From the NCBI RefSeq assembly GCF_006345805.1, contig NC_042998.1:147126001-147190000 (forward strand): a stretch of DNA of 64,000 bases. Direction: 5' to 3'. Under the pieces are notes generated by a model. It did no database searches. It had not been told where the DNA came from and saw only the letters and a program-made list of their open reading frames with translations. Shown here piece by piece: positions 24,456-25,084 of this stretch. The position numbers were made by a program, and so were the translations under genes. Position 1 is the stretch's first letter. Every line of letters begins with the position of its first letter. The stretch is from Octopus sinensis. Lineage: Eukaryota.

Positions 24456-25084
24456 GAAAAAATGCATTGTAAATAAACAACGACAAGCAAAAAACGTTTA
24501 CGAATATTGAGGGTACAACCGGACAAGAGACAGACACAGATGGTCCCTAATTCTTCATCAGTTATCAACTAAAATACTTAGTTTCACACCATTAATGATA
24601 AGACTAAGGACTTCACACATTGGTGGTGCTTGCGAAAGTCACAGAGAATGTCGGGCCTCAAGCAAACAAAACAATACAGAGTTGACATACGAAATTATAA
24701 ATGTAATTGAAGATGATGGACAAAAGATGAACTAACTAGGAGACAAGCAAACAACGACATTGTCTTCCTATTTCCGTATCCTTTAGGATTTTTTCTAAGC
24801 GTTACTTACCACTCTTGTCTTTTTGACTCTAGGCCGTATTTTGCTTGTCTCCTATTTATTTCGTCTTTGTCCATCGTCTTGAATTACATTTTTTTTACTT
24901 TCGTGTGACACTTTGTGTTGTTTTGTTTGCTTTTTGCCTGACATGCGAAACTGAGTATTACCATTTGGGGAGTAATAACTGATGAAAAATTAAGGACCTT
25001 CTGTGTCTGTCTCCTGTCCAGTTGTACCCTCAATATATGTATAGGTTTTTTTCTGACGTTGTTTATTTACAATGCATTTTTTCA
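24456..25084. mobile_element. PLE-type inverted pLTR pair (24456-24765 / 24840-25084) in (TA)n
   Basis: gaaaaaatgcattgtaaataaacaacg is inverted at cgttgtttatttacaatgcattttttc; the arms are diverged. Confidence 0.8.
24555..24608 (-). ncRNA. reverse-order hammerhead ribozyme
   Basis: Minus strand: ctta GTC ttatca ttaatggtgt GAAAC taag tattttagt tgataa CTGATGA. Stem III CTTAGT/ACTAAG and stem I TTATCA/TGATAA are perfect; stem II is poor. The other arm (24947-24985, +) keeps GAAAC...CTGATGA but has lost the GTC strand. Confidence 0.65.

Follow-up and report, generated by a model that had tools for sequence, protein, structure and literature searches.

The structure at positions 24455-25084 of the window (the whole stretch of 64,000 nucleotides that was analysed, which is repeat-rich eukaryotic DNA) is probably a single old insertion, inverted and truncated at its 5' side, that placed the 3' terminal repeat (pLTR) of a Naiad-type PLE into (TA)n and carries a split hammerhead whose intact kin most likely cleave. 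The fold is a non-circular permutation of the CSG/SGC class in which a break between A9 and G10.1 divides the CUGAUGA block; put differently, it is a CSG ring opened between these two nucleotides, with a helix, X, and a hairpin, Y, filling the step. It is a variant of a known ribozyme class, found in a new genomic setting.

As regards the anatomy of the locus, the left arm (24455-~24760, sense on the minus strand) is an inverted copy of the right arm (24770..25084, sense on the plus strand), and an alignment of the two arms confirmed the coordinates and layout that the preliminary description had given for 24456..25084. The U-rich 3' tail of the left arm (24455..24549, minus strand) runs up to the (TA)n-rich target on the left side (24393..24445), (TA)n lies on the right side at 25087..25100, and the 3' ends of both arms point outward into (TA)n, with a (TA)n run 108-116 nt from the 3' end of each arm. 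The arms are 85.6% identical over 222 columns (ribozyme block excluded), which, taken together with their ~69% identity to a third copy, fits one old insertion. At the inversion junction (24736..24770) there is an 11-nt fold-back (24738-24747 against 24759-24769), and the inverted pair with this fold-back would fit the truncation and inversion that are usual for PLEs on insertion. An assembly artefact as the source of the junction is ruled out by contigs of three DNA runs, in that the contig spanning 24643-24879 shows 0, 0 and 1 differences in runs X1-X3; moreover, a diverged contig in run X10 covers the inversion junction. The right arm keeps GAAAC (24947-24951) and CTGATGA (24979-24985) and has lost ~60 nt near 24943/24944, a deletion that takes Y, P (the upstream strand of stem II) and the site block, and also part of X and part of the stem II 3' strand, so that the earlier observation of a retained GAAAC...CTGATGA with the substrate strand gone holds. 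An alternative interpretation of this arm, as a minimal hammerhead of type II (GAAAC-3 nt-GUA), was rejected, the stretch concerned being the 3' arm after the deletion, without stem II.

The hammerhead core of the left arm lies on the minus strand. The motif scan placed CUGAUGA (C3-A9) at 24555..24561; the C-side strand of stem I (24562..24567) forms 6/6 Watson-Crick pairs with 24596-24601, which belongs to the site block (24596..24608) together with a stem III strand (24603-24608), and GAA with the other stem III strand occupies 24577..24585, GAAAC starting at 24585. With GUC at 24604-24602 and C17 at 24602, the cut is predicted between 24602 and 24601. Stem III, like stem I, has 6/6 Watson-Crick pairs, and the coordinates and pairings thus bear out the intact core, perfect 6-bp stems I and III, GUC site and reversed block order that had been noticed at first. 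The left arm carries CUGANGA, GAAA and the required UH, and A15.1-U16.1 is A-U in 11/11 of the examples compared below. As a separate observation, matches of two contigs end at 24602, the predicted cut, a hint of site-truncated copies that was excluded from all counts.

The order of the blocks, site-GAAA-CUGAUGA (S-G-C), is unlike the CGS, GSC and SCG orders of types I, II and III in the Rfam models, and no hammerhead family appeared at E<=1 among the best 150 of 170 Rfam matches, which are microsatellite noise. A scan that took in all six possible block orders found the site-GAAA-CUGAUGA order at four sites in the window (16507, 16917, 24561 and 32440), which belong to three unrelated families. 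Under the strict cut-off (stem I at least 6, stem III at least 5) this order occurred in 0/40 dinucleotide shuffles compared with the four window sites, and under the loosest cut-off the four sites compare with a shuffle mean of 0.10.

What sets the left arm apart is the region around this core. Its strands follow one another in the order X - Y hairpin - P - arm - site - UUAA - II' - GAAA - arm - I - CUGAUGA - X'. On the minus strand, the X strand (24645..24657) forms five Watson-Crick pairs beside the core, its extension being partly decayed, and these pairs (24645-24649) are made 5/5 with the X' strand (24550..24554), which directly follows A9. The Y hairpin (24630..24644), which has two imperfect pairs (24630, 24641), sits flush between X and P. 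The P strand (24624..24629) represents positions 10.1-10.6 of stem II, supplying G10.1 and the rest of that stem, and is 6/6 paired with the stem II 3' strand II' (24586..24591, with U at 11.1); a UUAA linker (24592..24595) separates the stem I and stem II strands. The two arms make the interaction helix between stems I and II: the 5' arm (24609..24623) holds one strand of this helix and an extension of stem III, and the 3' arm (24568..24576) lacks ~5 nt that the third copy and other contigs of the family possess, some contigs showing loose ends behind 24569, within this arm. This shortening leaves the left arm with a degraded interaction helix (score 10), compared with 9 bp in the third copy and 6-10 bp in the RT-linked loci described below. 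Computed without constraints, the left arm's MFE fold contains X, Y and P-II' alike. A 6-bp local hairpin after GAAAC in the same MFE fold was set aside, since it competes with stem III and is peculiar to the left-arm copy.

The same architecture recurs elsewhere in the window. The third, more distant family copy (2480..2850, minus strand, C3 at 2590), 69% identical to each arm, has the complete X-Y-P fold with a 9-bp Y and a 9-bp interaction helix, its core being mutated to CGGAUGA. An unrelated family (32422..32562, minus strand, C3 at 32440) shows the split fold with a 7-bp X, a Y of 7 bp + 5 bp and an AUA site. The remaining family is present as two tandem copies with the site-GAAA-CUGAUGA order (16446..17055, plus strand, C3 at 16507 and 16917); the 410-nt tandem duplication includes (TA)n and a 5'-truncated copy that starts ~16 nt before the predicted cut, and both copies end just 5' of the site block, so that X, Y and P are beyond scoring there.

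The support for the fold is comparative, because X-Y-P is within the range of chance on the left arm alone: 36/300 shuffles of its upstream region match it. Corresponding counts per 300 are 12 for the third copy, 2 for the copy at 32440 and, among RT-linked loci, 24 for L053 and 0 for L059, and the MFE z values are -0.60 for the left-arm region, -3.09 for the third copy and -1.91 for the 32440 family. In a table of the first five pairs per helix in 11 examples (3 from the window and 8 RT-linked), 53 of 55 cells are paired in stem I, 52 in P-II', 54 in stem III, 51 in X and 54 in Y; P, X and Y were picked for maximal pairing, which inflates their fractions, and the shuffle and antisense controls are the fair test. 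Within P-II', 51 of the 52 paired cells are Watson-Crick, with several pair types at each position, and G10.1-C11.1 occurs in 9/11 examples. Letters of the family majority (557-834 contigs per run at >=80%, in four DNA runs) point the same way among the 40 of 194 variants listed: the G-U at 10.1/11.1 of the left arm becomes G-C, its U at 11.1 being replaced by C, and both imperfect Y pairs become C-G. Furthermore, the pair 15.4/16.4 in stem III, A-U in the left arm, is G-C in the family majority and in the third copy, a compensatory change.

These figures also bear on stem II, which the preliminary description considered barely formed, as a further reduced fold or through decay, in what would be a plain SGC hammerhead. 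The poor pairing in the canonical register stands; the reduction or decay does not, given that a full 6-bp stem II is present with the upstream P strand, along with the extra helices X and Y. We regard the plain SGC reading as very unlikely. One or two pairs can indeed be drawn after a bulged A, and in the same register the truncated 16507/16917 family can form a stem II of 4 bp that is rich in wobble pairs, but the canonical stem II is paired in 17/55 (register 0) or 24/55 (register +1) cells against 52/55 for P, and the majority letters, among the variants listed, repair it by one pair at most. That the whole arose by random pairing in AT-rich repeat DNA, or through faulty assembly, has a negligible probability. 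The chance-level X-Y-P of the left arm would suit it, as would a window match at 12634, whose score of 58 lies in the shuffle range and which we set aside as chance; the block order, the descriptor scores (see below), the pairing counts and the recovery of the junction and the family in independent DNA runs speak against it, and chance is refuted for the motif order and artefact for the junction.

The association of the fold with an element type comes from metagenome loci that were picked by two Naiad/Chlamys RT motifs alone (at least 120, 80 of them with flanks). A full descriptor of the split fold, tuned after the examples were known, gave seven coding-strand matches, 679-1076 nt behind the RT motif, and none antisense in these at least 120 loci; the matches score 77-107 compared with a maximum of 64 and 0.3 matches per set in 20 shuffled sets (0.45 matches per set and a maximum of 74 for the descriptor without the interaction helix). 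A relaxed descriptor allowing mismatches yielded nine antisense and two in-ORF matches and was left out of the counts. Among the 39 loci with at least 900 nt behind the RT motif, 8 have the split fold and 2 more a plain CSG, so that a permuted hammerhead is found in 10/39 and none in 29/39; the loci L071 and L075 are one element, with a plain CSG. Two loci, L053 and L063, have complete ORFs with an N-terminal GIY-YIG, CxC, DKA and a C-terminal RT, and bear the same fold. Individual 3' UTRs depart from it, that of L056 by a one-base core insertion (CUGAAUGA) and that of L076, in which Y, P, the site and GAAA are present, by having no CUGANGA ahead of the terminal (TA)n. A strict scan of the at least 120 RT loci detected no type I-III motif on any coding strand, and viral contigs scanned for the RT motifs gave 0 matches. 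On the RT tree, the six split-fold RTs are 27-60% identical and scattered, requiring 6 changes for 6 rows; the split label being unclustered, the tree shows no single origin. The plain CSG element L071 and the split element L072 are sisters (61% RT identity).

Complementary evidence comes from the consensus sequences in File S5 of Craig 2021 (PMC8557442), in the part of the file available: reading by eye, through incomplete exact-word look-ups without a computed control, we found the split fold or a plain CSG in 17/54 Naiads. The split fold is seen in 11 of these entries (one from a ctenophore, one from Clytia, Amil, Aacu, Anas, Movir-2, Plae, Dst-4, Obim, Ovul and Esco), and the plain CSG in six nematode entries (one from Pristionchus, Nbra-1, -2 and -3, one further entry and Hpol). 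Several of the fold-bearing entries are flagged there as 'HHR_half_core' or 'HHR_core'.

Two further features of these 3' ends were noticed. The Y hairpin in L023, L031, L056, L059, L072 and several published Naiad ends often has the form GGUG...CUGCU, with tandem G-U, and a loop that often contains CUGA/UGA, a pattern absent from the window copies; it is possible that it reflects a tertiary contact or is a sign of common origin. The 3' UTRs of L025 and L047 and the 3' end of Naiad-1_Chem have no hammerhead and share another short conserved motif.

With regard to the identity of the family in the window, the preliminary description linked the motif to PLE-style insertion, and this is supported by the reverse-order hammerhead in a terminal repeat, the (TA)n target and the inverted 5'-truncated partner. 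The further link that it drew, through the coding PLEs of the window, was rejected, since in those elements the endonuclease is C-terminal and/or the motifs are of type I (CGS order). Specifically, 39435-42811 is a decayed coding PLE with RT followed by GIY-YIG, inverted ends (identities 96.8% and 99.4%) and a motif of type I order at ~42716, whose first core block is TTGAAAA; 3260-4679 is an inverted-repeat PLE remnant with a GIY-YIG-like fragment (3705-4115), the left arm of which holds a type I hammerhead (~3360) with a long stem II. No remnant of a Naiad ORF was found in the 64-kb window, where no ORF is joined to any copy of the family: in a tblastn search with Naiad-type ORFs, the best 30 rows include only the 40-42 kb element, with RT matches of 23-29%. 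Likewise, blastn of the window families against the at least 120 RT loci gave no nucleotide match, and the octopus entries of the published Naiad consensus have, by eye, no evident identity to the window family. Given these two null results, the assignment to Naiad is indirect, and from the shared fold and insertion style we consider it likely, with good probability, that the window family belongs there: the locus has (TA)n at both outer ends and a 5'-truncated inverted neighbour copy, and Naiads show the same (TA)n bias, 5' truncation, adjacent inverted truncated copy and 3'-end RNA fold in the part of Craig 2021 available (PMC8557442). That source also describes (TA)n bias and inverted copies in Hydra and other PLE clades.

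The ribozyme fold could, then, be correctly identified in a family that is not Naiad, being either a non-autonomous retrozyme- or SINE-like one or another PLE clade that acquired the RNA. This is rather unlikely in our estimate. It draws on the lack of an ORF joined to the window copies and on the (TA)n bias and inverted copies that Hydra and other PLEs show too, as the 39435-42811 element does in the window; conversely, all RT-linked examples are of Naiad/Chlamys type, in a search restricted to that RT type, and the Hydra motifs in File S2, like the other PLEs of the window, are of type I.

For intact Naiad-type members of the family, we propose that in a tandem element transcript X, Y and the arm/stem III rod would fold first, locally, after which P and I-CUGAUGA could pair with the apical loop, closing stems II and I as pseudoknots. 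The resulting standard core would cut after GUC, ~150 nt from the 3' end of the element, and cleavage of the tandem transcript could set unit-length RNA ends, as has been proposed for other PLEs. Activity of the intact relatives is quite likely. That the left-arm copy itself is active is doubtful, weakened as it is by G10.1-U11.1 and the shortened interaction arm; SGC-3 needs its interaction helix, according to the available part of Eckert 2023 (PMC10085705). The insertion at 24455-25084 is probably a fossil, because part of the interaction arm is lost on the left and the site is missing on the right.

Between the interaction helix and stem III there is hardly a break, a geometry that sits awkwardly with a monomer. 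A variant of the proposed fold, identical in structure, would therefore cleave only as a dimer or in trans, P and I-CUGAUGA at the base of one copy docking on the apical I', II' and GAA loop of another within a tandem pLTR transcript; we rate it as a real, if unlikely, alternative. It is favoured by the third copy and several RT-linked loci, in which stem III continues the interaction helix almost directly and neither strand is interrupted, and by the facts that PLEs form partial tandems and that action as dimers has been proposed for their type I hammerheads. However, cleavage in vitro is seen in SGC and CSG ribozymes whose linkers between those helices are very short or absent (PMC10085705, available part), and one arm is usually bulged, so that the bulge could serve as a hinge.

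Less probable still is that X-Y-P is a conserved off-state or a protein-binding scaffold that cleaves only after refolding, or never. In its favour, no covalent link leads from A9 into stem II, in contrast to all the tested hammerheads described in the available part of Eckert 2023 (PMC10085705), and in the anole PLE hammerhead cleavage is dispensable for insertion in vitro and no RNA-seq ends fall at the site. An off-state of this kind sits poorly with the absence of a conserved alternative stem II in the pairing table (17/55 or 24/55) and with the retention of the catalytic nucleotides, the UH triplet and G10.1-C11.1 across RTs that are 27-60% identical. It is also at odds with the plain CSG that is sister to a split element (L071/L072) and with the tolerance of the A9/G10.1 step for an extra base in CChMVd and SGC-1/2.

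Comparison with known systems places this fold close to, and distinct from, the permutations described so far. The reversed block order was already described in 2023 as SGC/CSG: Eckert 2023 (PMC10085705), on which the following rests in the part available, named the non-circular permutations SGC, CSG and GCS, showed cleavage for examples of each, and assumed that the three blocks cannot be interrupted, insertions between CUGAnGA and the stems being <=1-2 nt in the known hammerhead alignments, a point that weighs against the split core. The SGC examples stem from metatranscriptome contigs of viroid-like RNAs, with none reported there from genomes of known organisms, and CSG-1 and CSG-2 come from soil DNA metagenomes, with no retroelement link given in that part. 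The left arm shares the linear order S, G, C with the SGC ribozymes (HRIMA-1, SGC variants), in which the stem II strand follows CUGANGA with 0-1 extra nt, whereas in the left arm this strand lies upstream, with X and Y at A9/G10.1. With CSG it shares the succession of stem II strand, interaction helix, site, UUAA, II' and GAAA, the UUAA linker being identical to that of the cleaving CSG-1/CSG-2, but CSG has the CUGAUGA block on the 5' side, joined directly to stem II, whereas in the left arm this block is the most 3' and is tied back by X. Type I PLE hammerheads have the same terminal-repeat position and catalytic core as the left arm, and differ by CGS order, a tiny palindromic stem III, dimer dependence and the lack of a pseudoknotted core and of X and Y; motifs of this type stand separately in the window (2024, ~3360 and ~42716). 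An extra base at the A9/G10.1 step is known from the CChMVd plus-strand hammerhead, which is active with an extra A10 (PMC3705267, available part), and one is tolerated by SGC-1/2 (PMC10085705, available part); CChMVd has one nucleotide there, the split fold two helices and a strand break.

In the available part of Craig 2021 (PMC8557442), Naiads are described as lacking canonical hammerheads, with some flagged 'HHR_core' or 'HHR_half_core' and no permuted fold described. No matching hammerhead variant appears in the part of Forgia 2023 (PMC10162972) at hand; the accessible portion of a 2026 PLE/retrozyme preprint treats type I only, and that of a 2026 NAR paper merely cites alternative permutations. 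Within the literature covered, which takes in few subscription papers, we found neither permuted Naiad hammerheads nor a core interrupted at A9/G10.1 reported.

Taken together, we lean towards the view that the helix and hairpin between A9 and G10.1 represent a new natural architecture and an active, ancient ribozyme of Naiads. If so, it would be spread over ctenophores, cnidarians, acanthocephalans, ostracods and cephalopods, nematode Naiads having the plain CSG form, and would address the stated puzzle of abundant Naiads that seem to be without the hammerhead of other PLEs. The notion that Naiads lack hammerheads would be overturned, the fold being invisible to descriptors for types I-III and even for SGC/CSG. 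Non-circular permutations, so far represented by a few hundred metatranscriptome contigs and two soil-DNA sequences, would be present in animal genomes and at high copy number there, which suggests a possible home for the orphan CSG ribozymes. Moreover, the assumption of an uninterruptible CUGAnGA block would be broken, A9/G10.1 becoming a natural helix-insertion site that is usable in ribozyme engineering, and the presence of split and plain CSG on neighbouring RT branches may offer a route to the origin of permutations.

Several minor features of the window deserve a record. At 52262 (minus strand) there is a decayed GAAAC...CUGACGA with some X-like pairing, missed by the descriptors, which is possibly a fourth family of the split fold. 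Palindromic mini-insertions at 1958-2111 and 2130-2379 contain a minimal type I hammerhead of canonical form (C3 at 2024, minus strand) with a palindromic stem III and A.A at 10.1/11.1, and these motifs resemble the Hydra-clade motifs in the available part of File S2 of Craig 2021 (PMC8557442). Finally, fragments of Tc1/mariner-type transposases lie at 37215-37727, assigned by Pfam HTH_Tnp_Tc3_2, and at 60730-61518 and 10472-10948 (minus strand), the latter two judged by eye.
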